Source: a phage. From it: DNA of 64,000 bases. The notes below the pieces were generated by a model. It worked only from the letters and a program-made list of their open reading frames with translations. It was not told the DNA's origin and did not search any database. Positions 8,907 to 54,050 of the stretch are shown here, in pieces; within the stretch, counting starts at the first letter, position 1; every line of letters begins with the position of its first letter. The stretch lies in sequence record PX915677.1; one strand, written 5' to 3'. Made by a program: the position numbers and the translations under genes.

Positions 8907-10448
8907 ATGTCATTAGATAAACAAATTTATGAAGCTCTAACTGGTAACAATCTTAGTGTAGATGAAAAGAAAGCACTATTGAATATGTTGAAAGAGCGTG
9001 ACCAATGGAGGAAGTATAATAAGATTTTGTCTTTCAAGGCGTATGACTTCCAAAAGAAATTTTATGCAGCAGGATTGAAGCATCGCTTTAGATTCTTGTG
9101 TGCAGCGAACCGTGTTGGTAAATCTTATAGCGAGGCATACGAGTTTGCTTGTCATGTCACAGGTCGCTACCCAACTTGGTGGACAGGATATAAATTTAAA
9201 AGACCTATCTTAGCATGGGCAGTTGGTATTACAGGGGATTCCACAAGGAAAGTATTGCAAAAGGAATTGTTTGGTACACCTATCGGAAAGGATACAAACT
9301 TATTGGGGACAGGTGTCATTCCTCGTGATGCTATCGTCATTGACACGATAGAACGAGATGGTAACAAACTTCAAATCGTACAAATCAAACATCAAAACGA
9401 AAGAGGGGAGTTTGACGGTTTAAGTACATTAGAATTCCGTTCAACCCAACAGGGTGAACACACATTGATGGGTGCAACAGTTGACTACATTTGGTTAGAC
9501 GAAGAAGATCCATACGAGTCTATGGCTATATTCGCACAGTGCGTCACACGTACACTCACAACTAAAGGTCTAGTTACAATTACAGCTACACCAGAGAACG
9601 GTTTAACTGAACTGGTAGATAAATTTATGAAAGGTGAAGGGGATGAGAACACAGGTTCTCTATATTTCCAGAATGCTTCTTGGTGGGATGCTCATGCAGA
9701 CCTAGGTGGACATATCACTGACCAAGATATAAAAGATATGACTGAAGGTATTCCAGCGTGGCAGTTAGAGATGCGTTCGAAAGGTATGCCATTGTTAGGA
9801 AGTGGTTTGATTTATGATGTATCGGATGACACAATTAAATGTGAACCATTCGAAATTCCTGATACGTGGAAACGTGTCTGTGCAATTGATATTGGTATTG
9901 ATCACCCAACTGCTGCTGTTTGGACAGCTTACGACGCAAACACGGATACTATCTATGTTTACGACTCATATAAAGAAGGTGGCTTTACTCCAGTGTATCA
10001 TGCTCCAGCTATTAATGGTCGTGGTCAGTGGATTCCTGTCATCCTGCCGCACGATGCGGACAATATTGAGAAAGGTAGTGGCTCATCTGTTGCTCAATTC
10101 TATAAGAATGCAGGAGTTAACGTACAGAGTGAGACCTTCTACAACAAAATTGGAATGGATGGTAAAAAGAACTTCTTTGTAGAACCGGGAATCACAGATA
10201 TCCGAGAAAGAATGATGAGTGGACGCTTTAAAATCTTTAACACAGCCACTAATGCTAAGCTATTCGAAGAGAAAGCTAGATATCACCGTAAGGTTGGTAA
10301 GATTATTAAAGAACATGATGACTTAATGGATGCAATGCGCTATTCAGCGTGCTCTGTTACACATCGTGGTCGCTCTAAGCATGACGTTAGCTACGGAAGT
10401 GCTTCTCTGTATGAGGCAAACGTAAGCAGATGGAATCAGAGCTACTAA
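8907..10448 (+). CDS. Terminase large subunit (513 aa)
   Basis: P-loop-like NRVGKS, acidic Walker-B-like IWLDEED, C-terminal nuclease-like region (CAIDIGIDHPT); directly precedes portal. Confidence 0.8.
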   Translation: MSLDKQIYEALTGNNLSVDEKKALLNMLKERDQWRKYNKILSFKAYDFQKKFYAAGLKHRFRFLCAANRVGKSYSEAYEFACHVTGRYPTWWTGYKFKRPILAWAVGITGDSTRKVLQKELFGTPIGKDTNLLGTGVIPRDAIVIDTIERDGNKLQIVQIKHQNERGEFDGLSTLEFRSTQQGEHTLMGATVDYIWLDEEDPYESMAIFAQCVTRTLTTKGLVTITATPENGLTELVDKFMKGEGDENTGSLYFQNASWWDAHADLGGHITDQDIKDMTEGIPAWQLEMRSKGMPLLGSGLIYDVSDDTIKCEPFEIPDTWKRVCAIDIGIDHPTAAVWTAYDANTDTIYVYDSYKEGGFTPVYHAPAINGRGQWIPVILPHDADNIEKGSGSSVAQFYKNAGVNVQSETFYNKIGMDGKKNFFVEPGITDIRERMMSGRFKIFNTATNAKLFEEKARYHRKVGKIIKEHDDLMDAMRYSACSVTHRGRSKHDVSYGSASLYEANVSRWNQSY

Positions 10449-12761: not shown

Positions 12762-12998
12762 ATGAACATTAGGCATCAATTCAATAAAGAGCACGCCGCC
12801 GCTTTGGCGGCTCTCAATCTTAACGGCAGTCTTGACGCAGCATTAGAGGCATTGAAAGAAAGACTCATGACAGAGATAGTTCAAACCGAACCTCATGAGA
12901 ATAAGAAACGCGAAGATTGTTATCAAAAGTATAAAATGGTGGGTAGCTTAAAAGAGGTCATAAAAGCTGCTATCAATAGTGCAGGAGATGTTTCATAA
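12762..12998 (+). CDS. Hypothetical small protein (78 aa)
   Basis: ORF track; ATGA coupling to scaffold gene. Confidence 0.5.
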   Translation: MNIRHQFNKEHAAALAALNLNGSLDAALEALKERLMTEIVQTEPHENKKREDCYQKYKMVGSLKEVIKAAINSAGDVS

Positions 12999-14074
12999 TG
13001 CCACAAGATAATTATATTGACCCGAACGATTTTAAATCTTTCCTCCAACTGGATGACCTGAAAGGTTCTTTCAAAGAAGAACTCGGTCGATTAGAATCTG
13101 AACAAGAACCAGAAGTGGACATTGACGATGAGTTCCCGGAAAAAGACGGTGACGATTTCGACTTTGATACCGACCTTCTCGGTGAAAGCGATGAGCTTAA
13201 GTTCGAAGATGAAGATGGTTGGGAAGATCGTGAAGAGGAAGGCGAAGTCGAAGAAGATGAAGATGAATCCTCTGAAGCAGAAGAACAAGAGGAAGAAGAT
13301 TCAAGCGATGCAGAGTATGAAGATGATTCTGCTGACGGTGAAGGTGAAGTCTTTGATGTAGACTACGAAACCGTTATCACCCTTCCTGATGGACGTGAGA
13401 TGACTATTGAAGAACTTTCTAATGGCTATCTTACTGGTGCTGATATGACAGAACGAGAATCAACTCTTCAGCGTCATATGGAAGCATTCGAGGAACGTGT
13501 AGTAGGTTTGAAGGATGTATTAGAACTAGCGTCTTTAGAAGCAGACCGAGTAATTGAAGATTATAACGGTTTTGATTGGGACAAGCTTGCAGTAGAAGAT
13601 CCTCAAGCATATGTTGAAAACAAACGTTTCCTAGAGAAGTACACAGCTCGCCGTCAACAGCTTGAACAGGCTCAGGTCCGTATTAAGCAGGAAGCAGCAG
13701 CTAAAGAGCAGGAAGCTTTCCAAGCCAAGAGTATTGAATGTGTTAATATTCTGAAACGTGAGATTCCAAATTGGGATGAAAACTTATATCAAAACTTAAT
13801 GCAATACGCAATTGACTTAGGTGCTACTGAAGAAGAAGTATTGAAGGAAAACCGTCCGTCTATTTTCCTAGCTCTCCATAAAGCATACCAATTTGATAAA
13901 GGTAAGCAACAGGTGATGGCTAAGATTAAACGTCCCGGTGCTCCACGCAAGGTTGTGAAGTCTGATGCTGCAAAGTCTCGCACTTCCAATAAGCCCGACA
14001 ACGCTAAGGTTGCCAAGGCATTCGCAGAGGGTCGCGTTAGTCACGAAGACGCATTCAAATTCCTCGTAGATTAA
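12998..14074 (+). CDS. Scaffolding protein (358 aa)
   Basis: Very acidic N-terminal region, helical coiled-coil character, located immediately upstream of major capsid gene. Confidence 0.6.
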   Translation: MPQDNYIDPNDFKSFLQLDDLKGSFKEELGRLESEQEPEVDIDDEFPEKDGDDFDFDTDLLGESDELKFEDEDGWEDREEEGEVEEDEDESSEAEEQEEEDSSDAEYEDDSADGEGEVFDVDYETVITLPDGREMTIEELSNGYLTGADMTERESTLQRHMEAFEERVVGLKDVLELASLEADRVIEDYNGFDWDKLAVEDPQAYVENKRFLEKYTARRQQLEQAQVRIKQEAAAKEQEAFQAKSIECVNILKREIPNWDENLYQNLMQYAIDLGATEEEVLKENRPSIFLALHKAYQFDKGKQQVMAKIKRPGAPRKVVKSDAAKSRTSNKPDNAKVAKAFAEGRVSHEDAFKFLVD

Positions 14075-14115
14075 TCGACAAATTAAATTATTAATAGTAT
14101 AGGAGCTAACATAAC

Positions 14116-15174
14116 ATGGCTAATCCAACTTTATTTGTATCGTATGACCAGAATGGTAAAAAACTTTCTTTTGCTAACTGGATTTCTGTTCTGTCCCCTC
14201 AGGATACCCCGTTCGTATCTATGACCGGTAAAGAGTCTATCAACCAGACTATCTTTAGCTGGCAGACCGATGCACTGGCAAGCGTTGACGGTAATAACGC
14301 ACACGTCGAAGGCTCTCGTGCTGAAGACGGCGAAATGAAACCGACTGTTATCAAATCTAACGTTACTCAGATTCTGCGTAAGGTTGTTCGTGTTTCTGAT
14401 ACTGCTAACACCACCGCTAACTACGGTCGTGGTCGTGAACTGATGTATCAGCTGGAGAAGAAAGGTAAAGAGATCAAGCGTGACCTCGAGAAAATCCTTC
14501 TGTCCGGTCAGGCTCGTACCGACGTTCTGGCTGACCAGTACCTGACTAACTCTGCAACTGATCCTGCTGTTGTTGGTCTGAATGACACCCATGCAGCTCG
14601 TAAGACTGGTGCATTCCAGTTCCTGTGTGCTCACGGTGGTCTGGCTGGTGGCGTTGTTGACAAGACCAAGAATGGTCCTGCTGACCCGGATACTGGTGCA
14701 GTAACTGTTAAAGTTGCACAGAATGCTTCTAACCCGACCACTAACATTGGTTTTGATGAAGCTGATATCTTTGATATGACCCTGCAACTGTATACCGCTG
14801 GTTCTGAAGCAGATATCATCATGATTAACCCAGCTCATGCTAAGATCTTCGCTGGTCTGCAAGAAAATACTCAGGGTTCACGTAAGCGTATCTTTGAGAA
14901 CACCAAGCAGTTCATCTACGAAGTTAACAGCATCACTGACCCGCTGGGCCAGAGCTACAAAATCATCGTTAACCGTTGGATGCCTACCGATGCAGTTTAC
15001 TTCTTCCGTAGCGCTGACTGGACTCAGATGGTTCTGCGTGCTCCGAAACGTACTGAACTGGCTAAAGACGGTTCTTACGAGAAGTGGATGATTGAAATGG
15101 AAGTTGGTCTGCGTCACCGCAACCCGTATGCTTCCGGCGTTCTGTTCACTGCTGCGGGAAAGGTGGCGGCGTAA
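14116..15174 (+). CDS. Major capsid protein (352 aa), short isoform
   Basis: Position after portal and scaffold; strong RBS; followed by frameshift site and Ig-like domain ORF. Confidence 0.75.
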   Translation: MANPTLFVSYDQNGKKLSFANWISVLSPQDTPFVSMTGKESINQTIFSWQTDALASVDGNNAHVEGSRAEDGEMKPTVIKSNVTQILRKVVRVSDTANTTANYGRGRELMYQLEKKGKEIKRDLEKILLSGQARTDVLADQYLTNSATDPAVVGLNDTHAARKTGAFQFLCAHGGLAGGVVDKTKNGPADPDTGAVTVKVAQNASNPTTNIGFDEADIFDMTLQLYTAGSEADIIMINPAHAKIFAGLQENTQGSRKRIFENTKQFIYEVNSITDPLGQSYKIIVNRWMPTDAVYFFRSADWTQMVLRAPKRTELAKDGSYEKWMIEMEVGLRHRNPYASGVLFTAAGKVAA

Positions 15175-15698
15175 CAGTAGACAGTGTGACTGTTAGCCCT
15201 GCGTCTTTAGCAAGTCTAGAGACAGGGGCTACTCGGCAGTTCACTGCAAGCGCGGAGAAAAGTGATGGTTCTACCGAAACAACTGGCTTTACTTGGTCAG
15301 TGACAGGAGGTGGTTCTATCACTCAGTCGGGTTTGTATACTGCTCCGAGTGCGTCTCAATCCACTGATGTATCCATTACTGCAACTTTAGAAGGTGTTTC
15401 TGGTACAGCAACCATTTCTGAAATTGTTGCTCCTGCTCCTACTATTGTGAGTCGTGGGCCAATTACAGGTAAAGTAGGTGGTACTACCACTAACTTCAAC
15501 ACCATGTTTACTGTAACTAATTCTATTGCTGATGATTACACACTTGTTGTAACTCCCGCAGAAGCTGGTACAATAAGCGCTAATAATTCGTTAAAATTAG
15601 ATGCTGCTGCAAGTGGCGAAGTTACTGTTCAAGCTAGTTTGACAGCTGACCCGTCCATCAATGCAACATGCACTTTTACTGGTGTAACACCTGCTTAA
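14116..15698 (+). CDS. Major capsid protein long isoform: predicted -1 frameshift at G GGA AAG (15156-15162) fusing an Ig-like (Big_2-type) domain
   Basis: Slippery heptamer in capsid frame 4 codons before stop; -1 frame open 15096-15698 with no ATG; junction ...TAAGK/GGGVTVDSVTVSPASLASLETGATRQFTA. Confidence 0.55.
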
Positions 15699-15705
15699 AA
15701 TTAGA

Positions 15706-15729
15706 CCCTGCCTTCGGGCGGGGTTTTTT
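15706..15729 (+). terminator. Intrinsic terminator
   Basis: CCCTGCC(ttcg)GGCGGGG then TTTTTT. Confidence 0.7.
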
Positions 15730-15757
15730 CGTTTTAAGACCTATACAAGCTAGTGTG

Positions 15758-15766
15758 TAATGTATA
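15758..15766 (+). promoter_or_regulatory. TAATGTATA promoter motif (phage sigma factor-type, by recollection of phiEco32 literature)
   Basis: Exact 9-mer 34 nt upstream of start codon at 15800, just after a terminator. Confidence 0.45.
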
Positions 15767-15799
15767 TTCTTTGTCTACATATAACAAGGAGGACAACCT

Positions 15800-16312
15800 A
15801 TGGCAATGCCAGATTTCAGAGGGGCTTTTACATATAACCCAAATACAGGGCATCTTTTCTGGTCTATGAGTAACGTATTCAATAAACAGAAAGGGAAACG
15901 TGCTGGATGTATTAATAATAAAGGATATCGTGTATTAACCTTCAAGAAGAAATCATACCTAGAGCATAAGGTCATAGCTGAACTCTTTCTTCCTAAAGTA
16001 GAAGGGAAGGATTATGTCAACCATAAGAATGGAATAAAAGACGATAACAGGATTGAGAATCTAGAGTGGTGTACTCAACAAGAAAACTGTACACATGCTT
16101 TTGAAACAGGCCTCTCAACACCTAGGAGTCTTGAGGATAACCCTAATTCCAAACTCACTAAAGAGCAAGTTCTCTTTTGTTTGGAGAACTACAAACCGAG
16201 AGATAGAGAGTTTGGAGCTAGAGCCTTAGCTAGAAAGTTTGGGGTCTCTAAAAGCACAATATCTCTCATTACTAAAGGCGTAAACTGGAAGGAGGTTTAT
16301 TATGATGCCTGA
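15800..16312 (+). CDS. HNH homing endonuclease (170 aa)
   Basis: HNH motif region VNHKNGIKDDNRIENLEWCTQQENCTH; inserted between capsid and downstream virion genes. Confidence 0.7.
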   Translation: MAMPDFRGAFTYNPNTGHLFWSMSNVFNKQKGKRAGCINNKGYRVLTFKKKSYLEHKVIAELFLPKVEGKDYVNHKNGIKDDNRIENLEWCTQQENCTHAFETGLSTPRSLEDNPNSKLTKEQVLFCLENYKPRDREFGARALARKFGVSKSTISLITKGVNWKEVYYDA

Positions 16313-17051
16313 CGTCCAATACCCCATCAATACCTATGGGTGGCTAAAGAAGGCCGTGGCCCTCTGGGCAGATAGGGACGATGACGAATTTGTTAATCAA
16401 ATTCCAAACTTTATTAACTTTGCAGAGAAAGAGATTTATCGTAACTTACGAATCCCTCCTCTGGAAAAAGAAGTGTATTTAGATATCAAAGATGGAGTAG
16501 CTTATATTCCTCCTGATTACTTAGAAGCTCAATGGATGATGAGAGCCAAAGATGGTACAATCTTCCAAGTAACCTCTCCTGAGGAGATTAGCTATCGTAG
16601 ACAGCATGGAACAATTAATCCATCTCACTGGAATAACCAACCTGTTAACTTTGCTCGTTTCGGGAGTCGTTTCATTTTCTACCCTAGTATTGAAGCAGAT
16701 ACTCCTGTTTATCCTGATGATGGAAGCCCTTTAATTCCAGCAGAAAACTCAGTGATTCTTAGCTATTATGCAGACCCACCGGAATTCCACGAAGATACAG
16801 ATACCAGTGCTATTCTTACTATCGCACCAGAACTTCTTCTGTACTTCACCCTACGTCATGCTTGTCTCTTTGTTCAAGATGATAACGGTGTTCAGAAATG
16901 GTCAGCATTAGGAAAAGCTATCCTTGATGAAATGGTAGAGCAGAATAAGAAACAAGAGTACTCAGGTTCACCTATCGCAATTCCGAATAACATGACTCGG
17001 CTTCAGAGCAGCTTGCCTGATATTTATGGTATTCGTACTTCTCGTGTATAA
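16302..17051 (+). CDS. Hypothetical virion protein (249 aa)
   Basis: ORF track; GGAGG RBS; structural module context. Confidence 0.55.
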   Translation: MMPDVQYPINTYGWLKKAVALWADRDDDEFVNQIPNFINFAEKEIYRNLRIPPLEKEVYLDIKDGVAYIPPDYLEAQWMMRAKDGTIFQVTSPEEISYRRQHGTINPSHWNNQPVNFARFGSRFIFYPSIEADTPVYPDDGSPLIPAENSVILSYYADPPEFHEDTDTSAILTIAPELLLYFTLRHACLFVQDDNGVQKWSALGKAILDEMVEQNKKQEYSGSPIAIPNNMTRLQSSLPDIYGIRTSRV

Positions 17052-17060
17052 GGAGATAAT

Positions 17061-19337
17061 ATGATCGTTTATAATAACCAAGCACCTGATGCAGTGAATA
17101 ACGTTGGGCAGTTTGGTGCTACTGAAGGCTCTATCGGAGCTTACAAGCAAGCAGCAGAATATGCAGCTGACTCCAAATATTGGGCACTGCTAGCAGAATC
17201 TAAGTTTGGTACAATTGATGATTTAACCGCTGAAGTAGAACGTCTATATCAACAGGGTGTTCTGATGAAGCAGGATATTGAAGATCTTAAGCAGGATTTT
17301 AAGGATCAAGATGCTCGTTTGATGACTCTGATTGCCCAAACCAACGCAGCAGTATCGGATGCTAATAATGCCGTTGCTCTCATTAACCAAAAACTTATTG
17401 AAGTCCAGAATCAGCTTGATGTTCTGTTAGGAATGTCTGTTGATGTAACAACTCTCCCTCCGGGAACTCCGGCTACTGGCTCTTTTAATCCTAACACTGG
17501 TGTAATCTCTTTAGGTATTCCAGAAGGTGATCCCGGAAAAGATGGTTCTGTTAAGGATTTGGATACAGCACCTACAGGTGTTCCAGAGCTAGGTGATTTA
17601 GGTTTCTATGTTGACAAAGATGACAATACCGTCCACAAAACTACTCTAGATAACATTGCTAACTTAATCCCATCTGTCCGTTCTGTCTCTATTAACGGCG
17701 GTCCAGCTCTTGATGGAGAGGTTGCTCTAACGCTTAACAAAGAGACGGTAGGTTTAGGAAATGTTCTGAACGTTGCTCAGTACAGTCGTCAAGAGATTAA
17801 TGACAAGTTTGATAAAACCACCAAGACATATCAATCTAAAGCAGAAGCTGATGCTGACGCTCAATATCGTCAAGTTGGAGAGAAAGTCTTAGTTTGGGAA
17901 GCTACTAAGTATGAGTTCTACACTGTTGCTGCTAACAAAACATTAACTCCTGTTAAAACTGAAGGTAGAATTCTTACTGTTAATTCCCGTTCTCCAGACT
18001 CCAGTGGTAATATTGACATTACCATTCCAACAGGAAACCCTTCTCTATATCTTGGTGAGATGGTAATGTTCCCTTATGACCCAACAAAGAATATCTCCTA
18101 TCCGGGCGTTCTTCCAGCCGATGGTCGTCTAGTGTCTAAAGAGTCTGCTTCAGATTTAGGCCCATCCCTTGTCAGTGGACAACTTCCTGTTGTTTCTGAA
18201 ACTGAATGGCAAGCAGGGGCTAAACAATACTTCTCTTGGGGTAAATTGGCAGATGGTATTACCGATGCAGATTCTACTAATTTTATCAACATTCGACTTC
18301 CTGATTGGACTGGAGGGGAGGCAATAAGAGCACCAGATTCTGATAAAGACTCTCAGTACAATGGGTCTGTACAGGCTCAGAAACCTTATGTTGTTACTGT
18401 AAATAACCAAGCTCCTGATGAGATTACTGGTAATGTGAACATCTCCAGATCAATTTTAGGTGCTGCCGCTTCTGGTACAAACTCTGATATAACATCCCTC
18501 ACGGGACTCACTACAGCACTGTCTGTCACACAAGGAGGCACTGGAGCTAAAAATGCTGCTAGTGCTCGTTCTAATCTAGGGTTGGGAAGTGTTTCTACTC
18601 TGGATAATGTACCTATTGCTAATGGTGGGACAGGGGCTGGAGATGCTGCTGGTGCAAGGTTCAATATTGGAGCGCTAAGTAACACCCCAGCAAATTCAGG
18701 CGTAGGTGGTACTGGGGATCGTGTCCAACATGCCTCCGGGAACGGCCTGTTTACTTTAGACTTGTTTAACTGCTACTGGTATATGCAGCCAGAGGATACT
18801 AACTTCTGGATTGCCCACGGTGTGTCATATGCAGGGTCTGGTGGCGAAGCCTCACAATACGGTCGCATATCTTACGCAATAAAGATTGCAGACGGAACAA
18901 TAAAATATGTCCATTGTCTTACAAACAAAAACACCACTGTTGATGTAAACGGATTTATCAAAGCGGCATCTCCGGTAGTTCATATTTACTCCGACGGTCG
19001 ATATGAGACGAACGAGGAATCTGAGGGGGTTAATGTCATTCGGCAAGGTGTTGGTGAGTACTTGATTACCGGTTGCCTTGGCTTAAACGCAGATGCAAAA
19101 TGGGGAGGCATTGACGGCGGCTTTGAAATCCCTACTGACCGCAACAAACAACCTAGGGTTTGGCTGGACTATGAGATTAAAGAAGATGGTTCTATTTTAG
19201 TTAAAACCTATCACAGAACCCATCCAACCTCTCCGGTTTTTGCTAGAAATGAGATAGAAGGTTTTTCTGACGGTGATCCTATTGATATCCCGAGTGATGC
19301 TTTTATTTCAGTTCGTGTTGAAATGCCTTCTGAGTAA
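17061..19337 (+). CDS. Tail fibre protein (758 aa) with phage tail-fibre repeats
   Basis: Repeated GGTGA...ARSNLGL-type motifs (TQGGTGAKNAASARSNLGLGS, ANGGTGAGDAAGARFNIGA). Confidence 0.7.
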   Translation: MIVYNNQAPDAVNNVGQFGATEGSIGAYKQAAEYAADSKYWALLAESKFGTIDDLTAEVERLYQQGVLMKQDIEDLKQDFKDQDARLMTLIAQTNAAVSDANNAVALINQKLIEVQNQLDVLLGMSVDVTTLPPGTPATGSFNPNTGVISLGIPEGDPGKDGSVKDLDTAPTGVPELGDLGFYVDKDDNTVHKTTLDNIANLIPSVRSVSINGGPALDGEVALTLNKETVGLGNVLNVAQYSRQEINDKFDKTTKTYQSKAEADADAQYRQVGEKVLVWEATKYEFYTVAANKTLTPVKTEGRILTVNSRSPDSSGNIDITIPTGNPSLYLGEMVMFPYDPTKNISYPGVLPADGRLVSKESASDLGPSLVSGQLPVVSETEWQAGAKQYFSWGKLADGITDADSTNFINIRLPDWTGGEAIRAPDSDKDSQYNGSVQAQKPYVVTVNNQAPDEITGNVNISRSILGAAASGTNSDITSLTGLTTALSVTQGGTGAKNAASARSNLGLGSVSTLDNVPIANGGTGAGDAAGARFNIGALSNTPANSGVGGTGDRVQHASGNGLFTLDLFNCYWYMQPEDTNFWIAHGVSYAGSGGEASQYGRISYAIKIADGTIKYVHCLTNKNTTVDVNGFIKAASPVVHIYSDGRYETNEESEGVNVIRQGVGEYLITGCLGLNADAKWGGIDGGFEIPTDRNKQPRVWLDYEIKEDGSILVKTYHRTHPTSPVFARNEIEGFSDGDPIDIPSDAFISVRVEMPSE

Positions 19338-19377: not shown

Positions 19378-21576
19378 ATGTCTAGAGAATTAATGCCCAA
19401 ATCTGGTATAATGATGCCTCATGTGGTTGTAACCAGAGACGCGGCTGTTGTTGGGGTTTCTACTGTAGATGGACAGGCTGGAGCTATTAACCTCACCGGA
19501 AAATATTTACAGAAAACCGACGCAGCTGCTACCTATCAAACTAAAACAGAGGGTGCATCTAAAGATTTTGTGCTGGATTCGATTCAACCTATTATGTCTG
19601 GTGCGCTGTTCCGAGAAGACCCTTGGGTTGTTAATGATACCCCATTCCGTTCTACTGGAGCTAATGGTGTAGAATCAGTTGATATGATGAAAGTTACTAC
19701 TGATAACTCAATCAAGATTGGTAGTTATGCCTCTTCAGTTCAAGGTGTAGAGATTCATTCTGCTGGTCGTCTTCAGGTTGTTGACCAGAATGACTCTGGG
19801 GTAGAAACTAAGTATCCAGTTTATTCTAAACGTTACCGTCCTGAGATTGAGGATTTGCCTTTTGCTGCAATTGGTTCTTATGTTAAAGACTCTAAAGGTC
19901 GTACGGTAGGTGTTACTCGTACAGGGATTAACTCTGATATCAAACAGCTCACACAGAAAGTTACTTTCACTCAACCAGTAACTGTCCCTGATGCAGTTGG
20001 TGATCATGATGCGGTTACTTTGAGACAGCTTCGAAACAGTGGTGGTGGCTCTGGTGGTCCTACGATGAGCGGTATCTCTAACTTTGGTATTGGTGATTTC
20101 CATTTACGTGACAGTCGAGCTTTTATTCCAGCTTTTGAGGTAACGTCAGACGGTCAGCTTCTTAATCGTTCAGAGTACCCAGATCTCTGGGCTTATGCAC
20201 AGCTGTTATCCCCTATCTCAGATTCTGAATGGCTTAGTGATGCCCAAAAACGTGGACAGTACTCTACTGGTGATGGTTCTACTACTTTCCGCGTTCCAGA
20301 CCGCAACGGGGTTCAGGTCGGTTCTATTAGGGAGCTATTTGGTCGCGGTGATGGTGGTACATCATCCAACGATGGTGTTATCTATGATTCTGCTGCACCT
20401 AATATCAAAGGTAAGGTCGCTGGTGTATCAGCCGGGACTTATGCAGGGATATTCGGGACGTCTGTGCAAGATTCATTCTATACGGATAACAGTTTGTATC
20501 CGGCTGGTGGAGGGGACACTATACCTCCGGGGTCCGGTGCAGTTGATGGACGTAATAATACTCTAGTCTTCGACGCAAGCCAGTCCAACCCAGTTTATGG
20601 TCGTTATAGTATCTCTGACAACATTATACCGAGAAACTTTGTGGGGGTTTGGACTATTCGTGCTCATGGTGGATTTGTTGCTGCTAATACTTCTTGGTCT
20701 GTTATTAATAGTGACACCACACGACCTTCCAACGGAACGAAAGTTTCTAGTGGGTCAGTTGTCTCTGAGTATAAAATCGGTTCAGAAGTAGAAGCTTCTA
20801 CTACTCTCAAAACTGATGCCTACATCAACGGAGCTTACTATGGAATCATTGACGTCTACAATAAAACTAAAGGAGTTACCAAGCAGTTAGCTTTCGACGA
20901 TTCTGGTACACTGAATTCTGATAGGTATGTTTCTAGATTTGGCACTTTGATGTCTTGGAGTGAAACAGGAGCTAGGAAAGGAACATTCTCCATGGACAAC
21001 CAAGGGCTAGGGTCTAACTTCTCCTTCAATTCCATACTAAGTGCTTCTCAATCATCTAGTGGGGGATACAAGACCACCACTCATGTTGGCATGATTCACA
21101 ACGACGCCGGAACTTTTGCCGATTCTTGCTGGCACGTTGCAGGTGATGAAGACAACAAATACGGTTGCCGTCTAACACTTCGACCAAACAGGAATGAGAT
21201 TTTATATTATACTTGGCAACCCGGCTCTACTGGAACATACACTCTTGCTCTGAATCCCGTGTCAGATGAAAGATTAAAACATGATATCCAAGATATTTCC
21301 CCTGAGAAAGCTATCAAAGCTATTAAAGGTTTGGATTTCAAATCATTTGTGTATAACAATGATGAGCAAGGAAGAACTCGTCGTGGTATTATTGCACAGC
21401 AAGCAGAAAAGGTAGAACCTCTTTATGTTAAGACTCGTAGGTTCCACGACAATGATGGTGTAGAGCAAGAACAGAAAGAGCTAGACTCAGCTCCTATGCT
21501 CCTTGATACTATGCAGGTTGTTCAAGACCTTCTGAAGCGTATTGAAGTTCTAGAAGCAAAACTAGCAGAGAGGTAA
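19378..21576 (+). CDS. Tail fibre/spike protein (732 aa) with C-terminal intramolecular chaperone (peptidase S74-like) domain
   Basis: C-terminal SDERLKHDIQDI motif matching the SDxRxKxNI signature of self-cleaving chaperone domains, followed by coiled coil. Confidence 0.7.
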   Translation: MSRELMPKSGIMMPHVVVTRDAAVVGVSTVDGQAGAINLTGKYLQKTDAAATYQTKTEGASKDFVLDSIQPIMSGALFREDPWVVNDTPFRSTGANGVESVDMMKVTTDNSIKIGSYASSVQGVEIHSAGRLQVVDQNDSGVETKYPVYSKRYRPEIEDLPFAAIGSYVKDSKGRTVGVTRTGINSDIKQLTQKVTFTQPVTVPDAVGDHDAVTLRQLRNSGGGSGGPTMSGISNFGIGDFHLRDSRAFIPAFEVTSDGQLLNRSEYPDLWAYAQLLSPISDSEWLSDAQKRGQYSTGDGSTTFRVPDRNGVQVGSIRELFGRGDGGTSSNDGVIYDSAAPNIKGKVAGVSAGTYAGIFGTSVQDSFYTDNSLYPAGGGDTIPPGSGAVDGRNNTLVFDASQSNPVYGRYSISDNIIPRNFVGVWTIRAHGGFVAANTSWSVINSDTTRPSNGTKVSSGSVVSEYKIGSEVEASTTLKTDAYINGAYYGIIDVYNKTKGVTKQLAFDDSGTLNSDRYVSRFGTLMSWSETGARKGTFSMDNQGLGSNFSFNSILSASQSSSGGYKTTTHVGMIHNDAGTFADSCWHVAGDEDNKYGCRLTLRPNRNEILYYTWQPGSTGTYTLALNPVSDERLKHDIQDISPEKAIKAIKGLDFKSFVYNNDEQGRTRRGIIAQQAEKVEPLYVKTRRFHDNDGVEQEQKELDSAPMLLDTMQVVQDLLKRIEVLEAKLAER

Positions 21577-27264: not shown

Positions 27265-28284
27265 ATGGCATATGGAATATGGTGTCAACCTGTAGGTCCG
27301 GGGCCAGCTGCCCCTGCCCCTCTTTTTATTGACAGTAATCTAACATTTCCACAATACCTAGGGGCATACAGCATATCCCCTTCGTGGAGTGCTAGAAACG
27401 CTTCATTTAATGTCGGCTCTTTTGATGGTCAAGGAGAGTTATTAATTGTCCCAACTAGTAGACTTATTCAAGACTATTACGTAGGGACGGATTTAATGCC
27501 TAGTTTTAGCTATGTAACAGGTATAGGGACTTCTGGACAAACAGTAAATATTAACATAGAGCCTGCTGGAGCTAGCGGTAATAACAATAGAAGCTTCCCA
27601 ATGTCTTTCCAAGCATATAAACTATGGCCTAGAGGTAATAGAAGTTATGGAATAACTTTCTCCAACTCAGCAGATTTCTTCTCTATCTCTGATAGTGGGG
27701 TTGTTGGTCAATGTGTTTGGGCGTACAGAGGGGCTGTAGGAGATGGTTTTACTGTTCCTAATGCTGGTCCTAACGCTCTTGTGTTTGCTAATTGGAATCA
27801 GGGTGGGGTGTGTGCTTCTTACAATGCAAGCAATGGTCAAATGATCATAACCCACAACAGATCAAACCAGTCCGGAAGTAACAGGGGTGCAGTAATAAAT
27901 GATATGAGGATCGCTGTTTTTGCCAGTGGAGTGGGTGTGCCAGAACATAATGGGGGTTTGAATATTTATTCTCCCGGAACTACTGCTTGCGTATTCTCTA
28001 CTTACAGGACTCCTTTTGCTATTAGCAGGTTCTTCCCATCTAGTGGGGGTGATACAGGTCTAGGTATTCCTATGATGTGTATGAACGTTACCAATGGAGC
28101 TATAACAGCGCAAGGGGGTGGGTGGATGTGGGTTCATGAAAGATCCCATACAATGAGTGGTACATCGGTAGGAACAGGATTTGGACCACTTGTGGCTAAC
28201 TGGACTGATCAATACCCAATCAATGTTAACATAAACCTAGGATTCAATTACCCAATGTTGGAAGGTTCTTTAATTTATGCATAA
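27265..28284 (+). CDS. Hypothetical tail protein (339 aa)
   Basis: ORF track; structural module. Confidence 0.55.
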   Translation: MAYGIWCQPVGPGPAAPAPLFIDSNLTFPQYLGAYSISPSWSARNASFNVGSFDGQGELLIVPTSRLIQDYYVGTDLMPSFSYVTGIGTSGQTVNINIEPAGASGNNNRSFPMSFQAYKLWPRGNRSYGITFSNSADFFSISDSGVVGQCVWAYRGAVGDGFTVPNAGPNALVFANWNQGGVCASYNASNGQMIITHNRSNQSGSNRGAVINDMRIAVFASGVGVPEHNGGLNIYSPGTTACVFSTYRTPFAISRFFPSSGGDTGLGIPMMCMNVTNGAITAQGGGWMWVHERSHTMSGTSVGTGFGPLVANWTDQYPINVNINLGFNYPMLEGSLIYA

Positions 28285-32812: not shown

Positions 32813-32821
32813 TAATGTATA
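32813..32821 (+). promoter_or_regulatory. TAATGTATA promoter motif
   Basis: Exact 9-mer 39 nt upstream of ATG 32860. Confidence 0.45.
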
Positions 32822-37326: not shown

Positions 37327-37373
37327 TTCTAAGTTTTAAAAACCATCAAATTCGTCATACATCCCAATTCTCT

Positions 37374-37466
37374 TCAGAAGTCTGGATGTTCATCTTCAAA
37401 GCATCCTGAGATGCCTCCATAGAACCAATCCGATTTACTTCCAAGGATAACAACTTCTTCATTCAT
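37374..37466 (-). CDS. Small ORF (30 aa) with strong RBS
   Basis: AGGAGG 5 nt upstream of ATG 37466; MNEEVVILGSKSDWFYGGISGCFEDEHPDF. Confidence 0.3.
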   Translation of the reverse strand: MNEEVVILGSKSDWFYGGISGCFEDEHPDF

Positions 37467-37644: not shown

Positions 37645-37872
37645 CTAGATTAAATCGTAATACTGAATAATGTCAGAGAGTTTGAACTCTCGAATCTCAT
37701 CTTTCTCTACATCTATCGCTGTCATAATCCAACAAGGTTTGCCACCGTTATGAAAACGGGAGCTAGCAACGGAGGTTCGGAGTGGAATAACGGACCGGTC
37801 AGCAACCTCGCCTCTCCAATTGCGATAGCGAAAGCGAAGCACTTGTTGCGTAGATTTTTGATCATCACTCAT
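37645..37872 (-). CDS. Hypothetical small protein (75 aa; start moved to internal Met)
   Basis: ORF track 37645..38007 trimmed to MSDDQK start to remove long overlap with HNH gene. Confidence 0.4.
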   Translation of the reverse strand: MSDDQKSTQQVLRFRYRNWRGEVADRSVIPLRTSVASSRFHNGGKPCWIMTAIDVEKDEIREFKLSDIIQYYDLI

Positions 37873-38266
37873 TTCCTTTTTTGAATTGTTTTCTTGCATC
37901 ATTCTCTTCTTTTGTTTTAATCTTATGACAAGGGTCTTTACACAGAACTTGAAATCCCTCTTTCTCACACAGAGCACGAGAGATGATTTCATCCCAAGTT
38001 GCTTCATGATCTAAGGGAACTATAGGTTCTATGTGGTCAATAGCCATATCCTTTACAGGGTGGTCAGAACCACACATGGCACACTTAAAGTGCATTGCCA
38101 ATCTACCTGTCTTTGGATTAATCTTCTGCTCTGTCTTGGCGTCTGCTAGTGCATCGAACATGGGCTTCCACTTTCTAGTCAGAGAACGAATCCCTGACTT
38201 GATGAAAGAGTTATAACGAGCTTCAGTCCACATTCCACTACAGCGTATCTTCTCAGACTTCGCCAT
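37865..38266 (-). CDS. HNH endonuclease (133 aa)
   Basis: HFKCAMCG...AIDHIEPI zinc-finger HNH pattern. Confidence 0.65.
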   Translation of the reverse strand: MAKSEKIRCSGMWTEARYNSFIKSGIRSLTRKWKPMFDALADAKTEQKINPKTGRLAMHFKCAMCGSDHPVKDMAIDHIEPIVPLDHEATWDEIISRALCEKEGFQVLCKDPCHKIKTKEENDARKQFKKGNE

Positions 38267-38442: not shown

Positions 38443-38955
38443 TTATTTTATCCAGTCTCTTTCTATATAGGAGGTTGTGAGCTTACGTCTCTCTGCTTCA
38501 GTGGAGAAGATGACTACTACACTTCCTTTAGTGTTACCACTAACACTTTGCTGTGTATCTGCTCTTGTGAAACTCACACGACCACCTGTTATGAAAACAA
38601 TCTCATCAGCATGGTTTATACACTTAGTAAACCACTTAACAGAAGTATCAGCTGGTAGCAATAAAACTGTACCAACTTTAAGTTTCTTGTTTTTGATTGC
38701 CAAGTCAACCCAAGGAGTTATGTCTGAATATGGAGGATTACACCAAGTGTAAGTGTTTCTGAACTCAGAGAAATCATAGGTTAGAGAATCCATTTCCTCT
38801 GTTATATATTTTTCTAGTAGATGATTCTTGTCACTAGATGCTATATCACAGGAGAATTCAAACCTTGTGTTAAAGAAATCAAACAGCCATTTAGGGGTTT
38901 GCCATAAATCTCTAATGTCTTCTGGGGTATTACTAGATCTATAATCTGTTACCAT
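38443..38955 (-). CDS. DNA N6-adenine methyltransferase, phage Dam type
   Basis: WQTPxxLF N-terminal motif, catalytic NPPY (WCNPPYSDI), conserved LLLPADTSVKWF block. Confidence 0.8.
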   Translation of the reverse strand: MVTDYRSSNTPEDIRDLWQTPKWLFDFFNTRFEFSCDIASSDKNHLLEKYITEEMDSLTYDFSEFRNTYTWCNPPYSDITPWVDLAIKNKKLKVGTVLLLPADTSVKWFTKCINHADEIVFITGGRVSFTRADTQQSVSGNTKGSVVVIFSTEAERRKLTTSYIERDWIK

Positions 38956-42139: not shown

Positions 42140-42140
<1 letters not shown>

Positions 42141-42406
42141 TATTCTATTCCACGCTCTTTAAGAGCTTCTAACAATCCGTTGTGATTAGCAGCACATTCT
42201 GTGTACTGGTCCTGATACCACTCCAACGTAGTGGCTAGTGCTTTTCCTTGAGCACTCTCTAAAAGAGGTAGGTCAACCCTACATTCAGCTTTTAGGTTTG
42301 TTGGTAAGGGCATTGATTGCCTGCTGTTGTCGCTCGTTGAACAAGCTGATAAACTAAAAGCTAGCAAAATCCCCGTACAACTCAATAGCTTTTTCTTTAT
42401 ATGCAC
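42140..42406 (-). CDS. Lipoprotein (lipobox LSAC), candidate outer-membrane spanin subunit
   Basis: GTG start at 42406 with GGAAGGAG RBS; signal MHIKKKLLSCTGILLAFSLSAC; N-terminal coding overlaps 3-prime end of HNH gene. Confidence 0.5.
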
Positions 42407-42812
42407 ACCTAGCTCCTTCCAGTGTATCATGAAAACCAAGCCAAATAACCTTATCCTCGAATCCTATTCGAGCAGTCCATTTGTTAACATCCTTCCTATA
42501 CCCGACACCTTTTATGCCTGTTATAGAATTCTTCTGAGCAGATGTATTCATCTGATTCTGCGCATTGGTTGCTTTTCTTAGGTTAGTCCAAGAGTTGTTA
42601 GATTTAATCTGATCTTTGTGGTCAATATCAGTATCAGGGATTTCCCCTGTTTTTAAATACCAAGCCACTCTGTGCGCTTTATGCGCTTTTCCATTAAATC
42701 TAATAATAATGTATCCAGCATCTATCAAACAACCGGCTTCTTTTCCAGCAAACCTAGAGTTCCATTGATTGCTCTTCTTTTCAGAGCTTCTCCATGTTAG
42801 CTTTCCTGACAC
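42354..42812 (-). CDS. HNH homing endonuclease with AP2-type DNA-binding domain
   Basis: HNH region DIDHKDQIKSNNSWTNLRKATNAQN; AP2-like C-terminus (GVGYRKDVNKWTARIGF...LGFHDTLEGARCAY). Confidence 0.7.
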   Translation of the reverse strand: MSGKLTWRSSEKKSNQWNSRFAGKEAGCLIDAGYIIIRFNGKAHKAHRVAWYLKTGEIPDTDIDHKDQIKSNNSWTNLRKATNAQNQMNTSAQKNSITGIKGVGYRKDVNKWTARIGFEDKVIWLGFHDTLEGARCAYKEKAIELYGDFASF

Positions 42813-42835
42813 TTCATCATAGGATAAAAACTCTT

Positions 42836-43180
42836 CTATTCCTTCGATTTTAAAACCCTCTCAGCTTCTTTCTGTCTCTGGTTAAATAGAGAGACATACT
42901 CATCACTAGCGCAGACATTATAAAAAACTGGTTTAGTTTTCTCATAATGCATCTCTTTATAAATGGTTTCCGTGTTCTTCTTCCAGTTAGATAAACCGGT
43001 AAGAACCCTCTGAGCAACTTCATCAGCTGCTCTATTTCTTTCAATCTCTAACTCTTGTTGATGTTTCTCTTTGTCCAGATTACTGCTGTCTGTTTGATAT
43101 TCGTTAAACTTCATACCACCAAAGAATACAAGAGCTGAGAAAACGATAAACCCTAAGTTATCACTTAATGTGTTTTGCAT
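42836..43180 (-). CDS. N-terminal TM plus periplasmic coiled-coil protein, candidate inner-membrane spanin subunit
   Basis: Start moved to ATG 43180 (GGAGA RBS; track start lies inside terminator hairpin); TM segment GFIVFSALVFFGG. Confidence 0.45.
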   Translation of the reverse strand: MQNTLSDNLGFIVFSALVFFGGMKFNEYQTDSSNLDKEKHQQELEIERNRAADEVAQRVLTGLSNWKKNTETIYKEMHYEKTKPVFYNVCASDEYVSLFNQRQKEAERVLKSKE

Positions 43181-52656: not shown

Positions 52657-53313
52657 TTAACTCTCCACAGTTTTCTTCAGAGCTGCCCATGAGATTGGGT
52701 AGAGTTTAGCCATCTCTTCATCCAGAGATTTAGCAAACACTCGAACTTCATATTGAGCGTGAGATGAGAGTCGCTGACGACACAACTCAAACCAGCCATA
52801 CAAAGAACCAGTCCACACCCACTCAGTGATCATCCCCTGAGGAAGAACAAATCGAGCTTGCTCTGGTGCAATAAATTCAATCAACTTGTCATATGCTGCT
52901 AGAGAAGCTTCATATGCATCGTTAATCAGCATTAATGCTTCAGCTCGCTCTCCGTTGATGAGTTGAATCCCTGAACCTGCATGGAGGTCCGAAGGTCTCG
53001 CAAAAATCTCTTTAGGGATGAAGACTTCAACTGCTCCATCTTTATACCGCCGGGACATTTCGTTCCACGAGAATCCAACCTGATGCTTCTGTAGTTGACG
53101 AGCGATTGCAATTGGAGCCTTACAACGAAAGGACACTTGTGGGTGACGGAACGGAGTGCAGTGTTTCTCTCTAGCCAAGAAGTTAATCAGCCTAGTATCA
53201 CGATCATTCAAATCACCCTCTCGTACAACACCAAAAGAAACTCTTGCAGCATTAACAACAGTTTTATCACTGCCCATAGCTTCAATCAATGTTGCTTGCA
53301 ATTGTTCATTCAT
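52657..53313 (-). CDS. thyX: ThyX-like (flavin-dependent thymidylate synthase family) protein with altered signature motif
   Basis: VNAARVSFG, TPFRHPQVSF, KAPIAIARQL, SHAQYEV blocks align with ThyX; signature position reads KHQ-x8-S where ThyX has RHR-x7-S. Confidence 0.65.
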   Translation of the reverse strand: MNEQLQATLIEAMGSDKTVVNAARVSFGVVREGDLNDRDTRLINFLAREKHCTPFRHPQVSFRCKAPIAIARQLQKHQVGFSWNEMSRRYKDGAVEVFIPKEIFARPSDLHAGSGIQLINGERAEALMLINDAYEASLAAYDKLIEFIAPEQARFVLPQGMITEWVWTGSLYGWFELCRQRLSSHAQYEVRVFAKSLDEEMAKLYPISWAALKKTVES

Positions 53314-53785
53314 ACTTCAACTTCTCCTTGTTATAAGCAATCTCTGCTTCCTCTGGAGTATGGAAAGTTCCTAAATGCTTAGTCTTTCCGTTAACTCCGA
53401 TTATAGCTCTGAATTTTGTACCACTAGCCGTCTCTCTGATGTAAACACCCATTGGAAGTTTTCCAGCTTTTCCGGCTCTATTGTATTGTTTTCTGTTATG
53501 ACAGTTTGTAGATGGGTCAACATCTCTTAGGTTTTTAAGAGAGTCATCCAGTTTAATCTGGTTGATGTGATCAATCTCAAACTCAGGCATCTTTCCATAA
53601 GAGAAAAACCAAGCTAATCGACATGCTCTGTAAGATTTCCCTTCATAATAGATGTACCTGTAACCTAATGTTGAGACACACCCAGCAATGTTCCCTGATA
53701 CTCTCCTACCTTTGGTATTCTTCCACCTAAAGATTCCAGTATCAGGGTCATATGCTAAGTCTTCTTTTATCTTATCAGTTAACAC
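53306..53785 (-). CDS. HNH homing endonuclease with AP2-type domain
   Basis: FEIDHINQIKLDDSLKNLRDVDPSTNCHN plus AP2-like C-terminus. Confidence 0.7.
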   Translation of the reverse strand: MLTDKIKEDLAYDPDTGIFRWKNTKGRRVSGNIAGCVSTLGYRYIYYEGKSYRACRLAWFFSYGKMPEFEIDHINQIKLDDSLKNLRDVDPSTNCHNRKQYNRAGKAGKLPMGVYIRETASGTKFRAIIGVNGKTKHLGTFHTPEEAEIAYNKEKLKYE

Positions 53786-54050
53786 CTAAAGCTGTATCCA
53801 AAAATGCTTTCAGGTTTGCTTCAGTCTGCATACCAGAGAGGCTGTAATGTGTTCCACTGTTACGGTCAGGTACAACAAAAGCAGGGATGCTTCGTACACC
53901 ATACTTAACAGCTTGTTCACGACCATCACCTTCAAGGATGTTAATCTCTTCCACTTCTACATCAAACTCCTTAACAACCTTCTCAAAGGTAGGAGCCATT
54001 GCTTTACATGGAGCACACTGATCACTATAAAACTTAATTACTTTAGGCAT
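53775..54050 (-). CDS. Thioredoxin-fold protein (CxxC = CAPC)
   Basis: KFYSDQCAPCKAMAP near N-terminus, about 90 aa. Confidence 0.65.
   Translation of the reverse strand: MPKVIKFYSDQCAPCKAMAPTFEKVVKEFDVEVEEINILEGDGREQAVKYGVRSIPAFVVPDRNSGTHYSLSGMQTEANLKAFLDTALGVN

Follow-up and report, generated by a model that had tools for sequence, protein, structure and literature searches.

The free-standing Mob (HNH) and Seg (GIY-YIG) endonuclease genes of T4-like phages are single-gene selfish cassettes with a patchy distribution among related genomes; they lack dedicated translation signals, overlap their neighbours (mobE with nrdA; segF by 11 bp) and are associated with co-conversion of flanking markers (PMC2988022). 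The T4 elements are mostly intergenic, several are equipped with middle or late promoters of their own, and the free-standing enzymes often cut hundreds of base pairs (bp) away from their own gene. I-HmuI of phage SPO1 (Protein Data Bank (PDB) entry 1U3E), a nicking HNH_3 enzyme of 174 amino acids (aa), is instead encoded inside a group I intron of the DNA polymerase gene. Here, we analysed a stretch of phage DNA of 64,000 nucleotides (nt; record PX915677.1), in the following referred to as the window, in which an open reading frame (ORF) at 15800-16312 (+ strand) encodes an I-HmuI-like HNH_3 endonuclease of 170 aa, designated HNH1. Its gene resembles the T4-like elements in being a patchy single-gene cassette that overlaps its neighbour and has no dedicated translation signals, and its product resembles I-HmuI in size and predicted three-part architecture. 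However, HNH1 is free-standing in contrast to I-HmuI and, unlike the T4 elements, it lies inside the ORF of a host gene, that of the head-to-tail adaptor, from which it borrows promoter, ribosome-binding site and start codon and to which it brings a replacement start. We are confident, short of certainty, that HNH1 is a free-standing I-HmuI-like homing endonuclease gene carried as a promoterless 499-bp cassette within the adaptor gene.

Insertion into a coding region without splicing is likewise known from mobE in nrdA of Aeromonas phage Aeh1 and from mobA in the T4 topoisomerase gene (PMC2988022), but there the insertion divides the host protein into two polypeptides, which have to reassemble. 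In the window, the host proteins stay in one piece because the insertions lie near gene ends and the cassettes carry recoded copies of these ends. A partial parallel is found in fungal mitochondria, in which free-standing endonuclease ORFs are fused to the ends of host genes with duplicated C-termini. Lactococcal Skunavirus genomes also contain several I-HmuI-like HNH genes each, which vary in number and position and cluster by insertion site (PMC12724721). Homing endonuclease insertions have been mentioned in passing for the Gordonclarkvirinae (PMC11990801), the group of Kuravirus and Suseptimavirus phages around phiEco32, and several GenBank records already label the HNH1 gene as HNH or homing endonuclease. 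The type of element is thus ordinary and already annotated, and the gene-end replacement architecture is its only unusual part. We did not find a description of an in-ORF cassette with recoded gene-end replacement, spanning two overlapping genes and involving dual coding in the case of the spanins.

The HNH1 cassette and the start of the adaptor gene

The window derives from a phiEco32-like (Kuravirus-like) Escherichia coli podophage: its region 14000-18000 matched 126 phage records, the top matches being Escherichia phages of the phiEco32 group with 93-99% identity. About 99 E. coli/Shigella records carrying the neighbouring genome served as sample of relatives, and the junctions of the insertion were read from an alignment of genomes with HNH1 (IME267, 1-6af, XT18, TH06, MLP3, PAS59 and Bas86) and without it (phiEco32, Bas90, Ec3-ASingh and FS2B).

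HNH1 is preceded by an intrinsic terminator located 3' of an Ig-like gene (15703-15736, + strand; a 10-bp stem with 6 GC pairs at 15703-15726, then a T run; terminator scan), by the element TAATGTATA (15758-15766, + strand) and by a translation start (15786-15814, + strand) that consists of the Shine-Dalgarno sequence AAGGAGG (15786-15792), a 7-nt spacer and ATGGCAATGCCAGAT, encoding MAMPD. TAATGTATA exactly matches the consensus of the middle/late promoters used by the phage-encoded sigma factor gp36 (tAATGTAtA), of which phiEco32 has six, with transcription starting 6-8 bp downstream (PMC8948821); the motif is given as gp36 promoter consensus also in PMC12276001. The window holds six copies as well (0.65 expected; a count of six was reached in 0 of 100 shuffles), equalling the number reported for phiEco32. 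The position of HNH1 behind terminator and TAATGTATA is as described in the original prediction, an earlier reading of the bare sequence, which had concluded that the gene stands behind its own promoter. This ownership did not hold up, since terminator, TAATGTATA, Shine-Dalgarno sequence and ATGGCAATGCCAGAT, and with the latter the first 15 coding bases, are identical in phiEco32, Bas90, FS2B and Ec3-ASingh, all of which lack HNH1. The terminator is resident, with the same sequence in genomes with and without HNH1, and 15786-15814 corresponds base for base to the adaptor gene start of these four phages, in which the same signals begin the adaptor gene (MAMPDVQYP...; uninterrupted start ATGGCAATGCCAGATGTTCAATACC in Bas90 and phiEco32). 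TAATGTATA occurs at the same place in phiEco32, Bas90 and SU7; in SU7, which belongs to another genus and has no HNH1, the same elements are present with few base differences and the adaptor begins with MAMPDV behind the same promoter. Hence, HNH1 took over the resident promoter, ribosome-binding site and start codon of the adaptor gene, and TAATGTATA at 15758-15766 is the resident late promoter of that gene, now also driving HNH1. A scan for sigma-70 promoters and terminators detected no internal promoter or terminator in the cassette, and no further TAATGTATA is present inside 15800-16312.

Another copy of TAATGTATA, at 32813-32821, contains the ATG (32815) that the ORF finder used as start of a 1488-aa ORF. 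If this copy is a real gp36 promoter, the true start of the ORF therefore lies further downstream.

Compared with genomes lacking HNH1, the cassette comprises 499 bp (15815-16313, + strand), its boundary being ambiguous within an imperfect 9-bp repeat (ATGCCAGAT / ATGCCTGAC). The insertion point lies 15 bases into the adaptor gene, and everything upstream is the same in phages lacking HNH1, so the cassette entered after adaptor codon 5 and HNH1 has the original first residues of the adaptor, MAMPD, as its N-terminus. At its 3' end, the cassette provides a replacement start for the adaptor (16289-16313, + strand), composed of a second AAGGAGG (16289-16295) embedded in the HNH1 codons W-K-E-V, a 6-nt spacer and ATGATGCCTGAC, which encodes a recoded MMPD. 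From here the adaptor restarts as MMPDVQYP, overlapping the end of HNH1 including its stop codon (16310-16312) by 11 nt. The duplicated codons differ between the two copies (CCAGAT upstream, CCTGAC downstream). As a result, the adaptor of the window (16302-17051, + strand; phrog_2941, E = 1.7e-77) has 249 aa, one N-terminal residue less than the 250-aa form of phages without HNH1; we assign it as an SU10-type head-to-tail adaptor because its orthologues carry Pfam PF24175 (SU10_adaptor). The layout of the replacement start is kept in all HNH1-positive alleles, including that of Bas86 (70% identity) and metagenome contig L028. A further metagenome contig, L025, retains a full five-codon duplicate (MSMPE), supporting the idea of a cassette-borne copy of the adaptor start that was displaced. 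Together with the MAMPDV start of SU7, this duplicate suggests that HNH1 captured a start which was ancestrally that of the adaptor. The cassette has a GC content of 38.3%, compared to 42.0% for the window.

The HNH1 protein, its distribution and proposed mobility

HNH1 belongs to Pfam family HNH_3 (PF13392; E = 1.1e-11, 44.6 bits against a cut-off of 24.8) and matches phrog_59 (E = 2e-38). Its best solved relative by sequence is I-HmuI (1U3E; E = 4.4e-05), to which it is only about 22% identical. An AlphaFold2 model built from 50 homologues reached a mean predicted local distance difference test score (pLDDT) of 88.7, and 1U3E was again the only significant fold match in the PDB (Foldseek; 169 columns, E = 2.8e-06, probability 1.00), at a template modelling score (TM-score) of only 0.46. 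Because 1U3E matches over the whole length of the model, HNH1 is predicted to have the three-domain architecture of I-HmuI, with an N-terminal beta DNA-binding domain, an HNH core of the beta-beta-alpha-metal type and a C-terminal helix-turn-helix in an elongated arrangement. The cores align as VNHKNG...NRIENLEW...EN in HNH1 and VDHKDG...NLSTNLRW...IN in I-HmuI. Three residues of the HNH1 core (N74 H75 ... N87 ... N96), H75 at the position of the general base, N87 and N96, are counterparts of catalytic residues in I-HmuI, and none of them varies among the 50 homologues. The ORF is intact throughout, with 170 aa in all eight translated alleles of database phages and 168-177 aa in metagenome alleles, and the ratio of non-synonymous to synonymous divergence (dN/dS) between alleles is 0.12-0.17, indicating that HNH1 is under purifying selection.

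The cassette was detected in 12 records (11 distinct phages), leaving about 88% of the close relatives without HNH1. Its junction is identical in every carrier, including alleles at 70% nucleotide identity and metagenome contigs. A protein search recovered 12 closely related clusters (71-97% identity), after which identity falls to 53% and below; in all contigs examined, HNH1 is located directly upstream of the SU10_adaptor gene and begins with MAM(P/Q)D. These results bear on a packaging role, which had been raised in the original prediction. HNH proteins of the HK97 gp74 type assist the terminase: they are needed for packaging, and their genes are conserved and located beside that of the terminase. 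HNH1 shares with gp74 an HNH motif encoded in the late, structural region, and its place in the late structural operon under a late promoter would suit a protein that works with the terminase and is needed to form virions. In contrast to gp74, however, HNH1 is dispensable and belongs to a different HNH subfamily: most close relatives, including phiEco32, lack it and are nevertheless viable isolates. The gene does not adjoin the terminase but lies about 5 kb from the putative large subunit ORF (8907-10448, named solely from its position beside the portal gene). Moreover, family and fold are those of the homing endonuclease I-HmuI, and the gene is a discrete 499-bp insertion within the start of another gene. 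We thus regard a packaging function of HNH1 as highly improbable.

The surroundings of the cassette are much more uniform than the cassette itself. The flanks in the window are 99-100% identical to those of FS2B, Ec3-ASingh and Bas90, which lack HNH1, whereas the HNH1 allele of the window reaches at best 93% identity to that of any database phage. Compared with TH06, the flanks are again 99-100% identical (in the capsid region, 1 of 1000 bases differs), but synonymous divergence (dS) within HNH1 is 0.36. The allele of the window is a recombinant, with a 5' part of the TH06/IME267 type and a 3' part of the 1-6af type. Directly downstream of the cassette, 141 bp (16314-16454, + strand) contain five mismatches to the nearest HNH1-negative relatives, compared to a single one in the next 1046 bp (Fisher p = 1.2e-4), and all five window alleles also occur in HNH1-carrying genomes. 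Resting on five single-nucleotide polymorphisms (SNPs), this segment looks like a short co-conversion tract.

A separate mosaic patch is located 200-400 bp upstream of the HNH1 site, at 15401-15600 in the Ig-like gene. It is only 82-84% identical to Bas90, Ec3-ASingh and TH06, with flanks at 99-100%, and 98.5-100% identical to FS2B and one contig from the Sequence Read Archive (SRA). The patch could stem from selection on the decoration protein or from endonuclease-linked recombination.

How might the cassette be expressed and spread? Late in infection, host RNA polymerase with gp36 would initiate at the adaptor promoter TAATGTATA; the original ribosome-binding site and first five codons of the adaptor would then begin HNH1, and the adaptor itself would be translated from the second ribosome-binding site and the recoded start in the last codons of the cassette. 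During mixed infection, HNH1 would nick or cut a cassette-lacking relative near its intact adaptor start, and repair templated by cassette-bearing genomes would copy the cassette together with a short flank. The carrier itself would escape cleavage, its site being interrupted by the insertion and its duplicated codons being recoded.

Several points weigh against this interpretation. Nuclease activity and target site of HNH1, like its expression timing and self-immunity, are inferred. Asp74, a metal ligand in I-HmuI, is replaced by Asn in HNH1; this Asn is invariant in the 50 homologues and is probably tolerated in the HNH1 family. The putative co-conversion tract amounts to five SNPs and is missing from contig L020, although this contig is closely related and carries HNH1. 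The patchy distribution could also have arisen by repeated precise loss via the 9-bp imperfect repeats rather than by repeated gain. Finally, an experimental mapping of the promoter of phiEco32 gene 13, which encodes the adaptor, was not found in the open-access literature, which yielded the consensus and the number of six promoters only.

Some of these points would also fit an HNH1 that no longer homes and is kept as a DNA-binding regulator, be it an autorepressor or a modulator of the adaptor, or as a weapon for marker exclusion. Such a role would agree with the strong purifying selection, with the old and stable arrangement, with the Asp-to-Asn change at the metal-ligand position and with the C-terminal helix-turn-helix; there is precedent in T4 intron endonucleases that double as autorepressors (PMC2988022) and in marker exclusion by the I-HmuI-like HNH endonucleases of Skunavirus (PMC12724721). 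However, the 50 homologues all share this Asn as well as the remaining HNH motif, so the substitution resembles a characteristic of the family more than a sign of degeneration, and patchiness, deep divergence of alleles beside near-identical flanks and the flanking tract fit continuing horizontal movement. Exclusion and homing are, in addition, compatible with each other. A purely non-homing HNH1 therefore appears unlikely to us, and we favour the homing endonuclease described above.

HNH3, HNH4 and a methyltransferase cassette

Three further HNH genes reside in the window, all on the - strand, and two of them, HNH3 and HNH4, represent elements of the HNH1 type. HNH3 (42354-42812, - strand; HNH_3, E = 8.4e-16, with a sub-threshold AP2-like C-terminal match) occupies a 545-bp cassette (42350-42894, - strand) that appears as an indel in comparison with Bas90 and SU10. 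It is present in 9 of the about 99 records, four copies being full-length (94.5-98.5% identity) and five diverged (about 70%). Phages without HNH3 have their o-spanin gene (MRKLNQFFIMSALVMSMSAC|STSDN...) nested in another frame within the final part of the i-spanin gene, and the cassette is inserted inside this overlap. It supplies new ends to both genes. The cassette 5' end encodes the last 14 codons of the i-spanin (42836-43180, - strand) as a heavily recoded tail, SLFNQRQKEAERVLKSKE, replacing SLFNERQQQAINALTNKPKS of the phages lacking HNH3. The 3' end carries the Shine-Dalgarno sequence AAGGAG (42418-42413) and a GTG start at 42406; beginning there, the o-spanin (42140-42406, - strand) consists of a new lipoprotein signal peptide, HIKKKLLSCTGILLAFSLSAC, followed by the original mature part. 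HIKKKLLSCTGILLAFSLSAC is read in a second frame of the last HNH3 codons, and the SU7 and Bas86 copies, at about 70% DNA identity, still encode a signal peptide, MLTKKKQKSCLVIFLASSLMAC, in the same frame.

Record annotations conflict at this locus: SU7 has an O-spanin there, and Bas86 joins an Rz-like spanin coding sequence across the HNH gene as if it were spliced. Together with a note of 'Phage intron' in the MLP3 record and the fact that the closest solved relative, I-HmuI, is intron-encoded in SPO1, this could be taken to mean that the HNH1 and HNH3 insertions are self-splicing group I introns and that adaptor and spanin are restored by RNA splicing. Nevertheless, a whole-window search with Rfam at gathering thresholds returned no group I or II intron, nor did the two insertion regions (15650-16450 and 42200-43050) yield one at E ≤ 1. 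The HNH1 ORF fills the entire 499-bp insert, so there is no room for a ribozyme core, and splicing is not needed because the interrupted genes have complete, conserved replacement ends, each equipped with a ribosome-binding site and a start or stop codon. Self-splicing is thus a most improbable explanation of either insertion, and we read both as free-standing endonuclease cassettes. Weak Rfam matches to small RNAs and snoRNAs, located on the terminator and on coding sequence, were discarded as chance matches.

The N-terminus of HNH3 is uncertain, since distant copies preserve the residues EEFLSYDE encoded in frame upstream of it (within 42812-42860, - strand), although a canonical start codon is missing ahead of them. 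The first HNH3 codon, GTG in the window, is ATG in EK010. The same 1-kb lysis region has another insertion site for an HNH gene: in SU10, 1-6af, FH3 and CHD5UKE1, about 424 bp are inserted immediately upstream of the i-spanin gene (1695-2108 in SU10), annotated as HNH endonuclease in the SU10 and CHD5UKE1 records. The equivalent position in the window, around 43240, holds no insertion.

HNH4 (53306-53785, - strand; 159 aa, HNH_3, E = 6.7e-07) lies between a thioredoxin-like gene (53775-54050) upstream and thyX (52657-53313) downstream. It begins with a GTG and shares 11 nt with the end of the upstream gene, stop codon included; its final codons contain an AAGGAG Shine-Dalgarno sequence for thyX, whose ATG overlaps the HNH4 stop codon. 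HNH4 matches 15 records: in 13 of them the match extends over at least 80% of the query, and the other two are short matches in an unrelated Salmonella phage. A protein comparison with phmmer identified HNH1, HNH3 and HNH4 as distant paralogues. No database phage has all three genes, and the carriers hold differing pairs; the three elements hence assort independently, each at one fixed site.

HNH2 (37865-38266, - strand; 133 aa) is unrelated to these three by the same comparison. It belongs to the PHROG HNH family phrog_3106 (E = 5.5e-40) and carries CxxC...DH...CxxxCH motifs, a zinc-finger HNH pattern; a Pfam search gave no HNH match and a PDB sequence search nothing meaningful. The gene is present in 99 of 99 related records and therefore not mobile on this timescale, its GC content of 41.5% equals the genome average, and it is located at the end of a leftward operon, not adjoining the terminase gene. 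We thus count HNH2 among the conserved core genes instead of the mobile ones. Some records label it 'terminase small subunit'. The original prediction had offered selfish homing as the alternative to a packaging role and had named presence or absence in related phages as the relevant comparison. Carried out here, this comparison bore out the alternative for HNH1, HNH3 and HNH4, each found in about 9-15 of the about 99 records at one site, but not for HNH2; universal conservation of all HNH genes, which would have argued against mobility, was not observed, since three of the four are patchy.

The window also contains a cassette of another kind. An N6-adenine methyltransferase gene (TIGR01712, E = 1.8e-38) occupies 503 bp at 38448-38950 (- strand) and occurs in only three related records (EK5, DE5 and EcM-vB1). 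Like the HNH cassettes it is seamlessly inserted into an operon: its ATG is created inside the last codons of an exonuclease gene (GAATGGTAA), and the exonuclease ends in REW instead of KSW. Its GC content is the lowest among the cassettes (36.8%).

The cassettes of about 500 bp in Gordonclarkvirinae, represented in the window by three with HNH genes and one with a Dam-like methyltransferase gene, might constitute a distinct organisational class of free-standing mobile genes characterised by absence of a promoter, insertion within coding sequence at gene ends and recoded replacement ends. We advance this grouping tentatively and would not yet rely on it. If it is correct, an endonuclease could colonise an overlapping gene pair without splicing and without splitting a host protein, and recoding would double as self-immunity against the cassette's own enzyme. 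For annotation, the results mean that TAATGTATA at this locus should be described as late promoter of the adaptor gene and HNH1 as homing endonuclease rather than packaging factor. They also mean that the starts of adaptor and o-spanin lie inside endonuclease ORFs, a situation in which at least one public record joins the spanin in an intron-like manner. The adaptor locus represents a compact, testable case of a selfish nuclease in an essential late gene with little apparent cost, and HNH3 extends the case to two overlapping genes. Natural pairs for experiments are available in culture collections, namely Bas86 or TH06 with the cassette and Bas90 or phiEco32 without it. From an engineering perspective, the junctions display naturally tolerated sites and signals for payloads of about 500 bp in Kuravirus genomes.

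Gene order and inventory of HNH genes

HNH1 stands between capsid and tail genes, as previously noted. Scaffold protein (12998-14074), major capsid protein (14116-15174) and Ig-like (decoration) protein (15186-15698) are encoded upstream of it, adaptor and tail fibre (17061-19337) downstream. The original prediction had counted four or five HNH genes in the window. Four are confirmed at the positions given there, all of them encoding members of HNH families, HNH1 on the + strand and the other three on the - strand, a point absent from that account. A fifth was not found, either with a regular expression for the HNH_3 motif, with phmmer searches of the four proteins against window ORFs of at least 45 aa or by comparison with Bas90, checks that would miss a very divergent nuclease family common to the window and Bas90. 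NCBIfam returned zero matches for all four proteins. In a whole-window BLAST comparison with Bas90, the only window-specific blocks of about 500 bp were HNH1, HNH3, HNH4 and the methyltransferase cassette, apart from divergent stretches of tail genes at 20715-21258 and 27336-28282.

An apparent case of sharing across genera was rejected. The 125 matches to Klebsiella jumbo phages all trace back to one 41-bp stretch (37336-37376) with 95% identity, a short motif only that inflated the match counts for this region.

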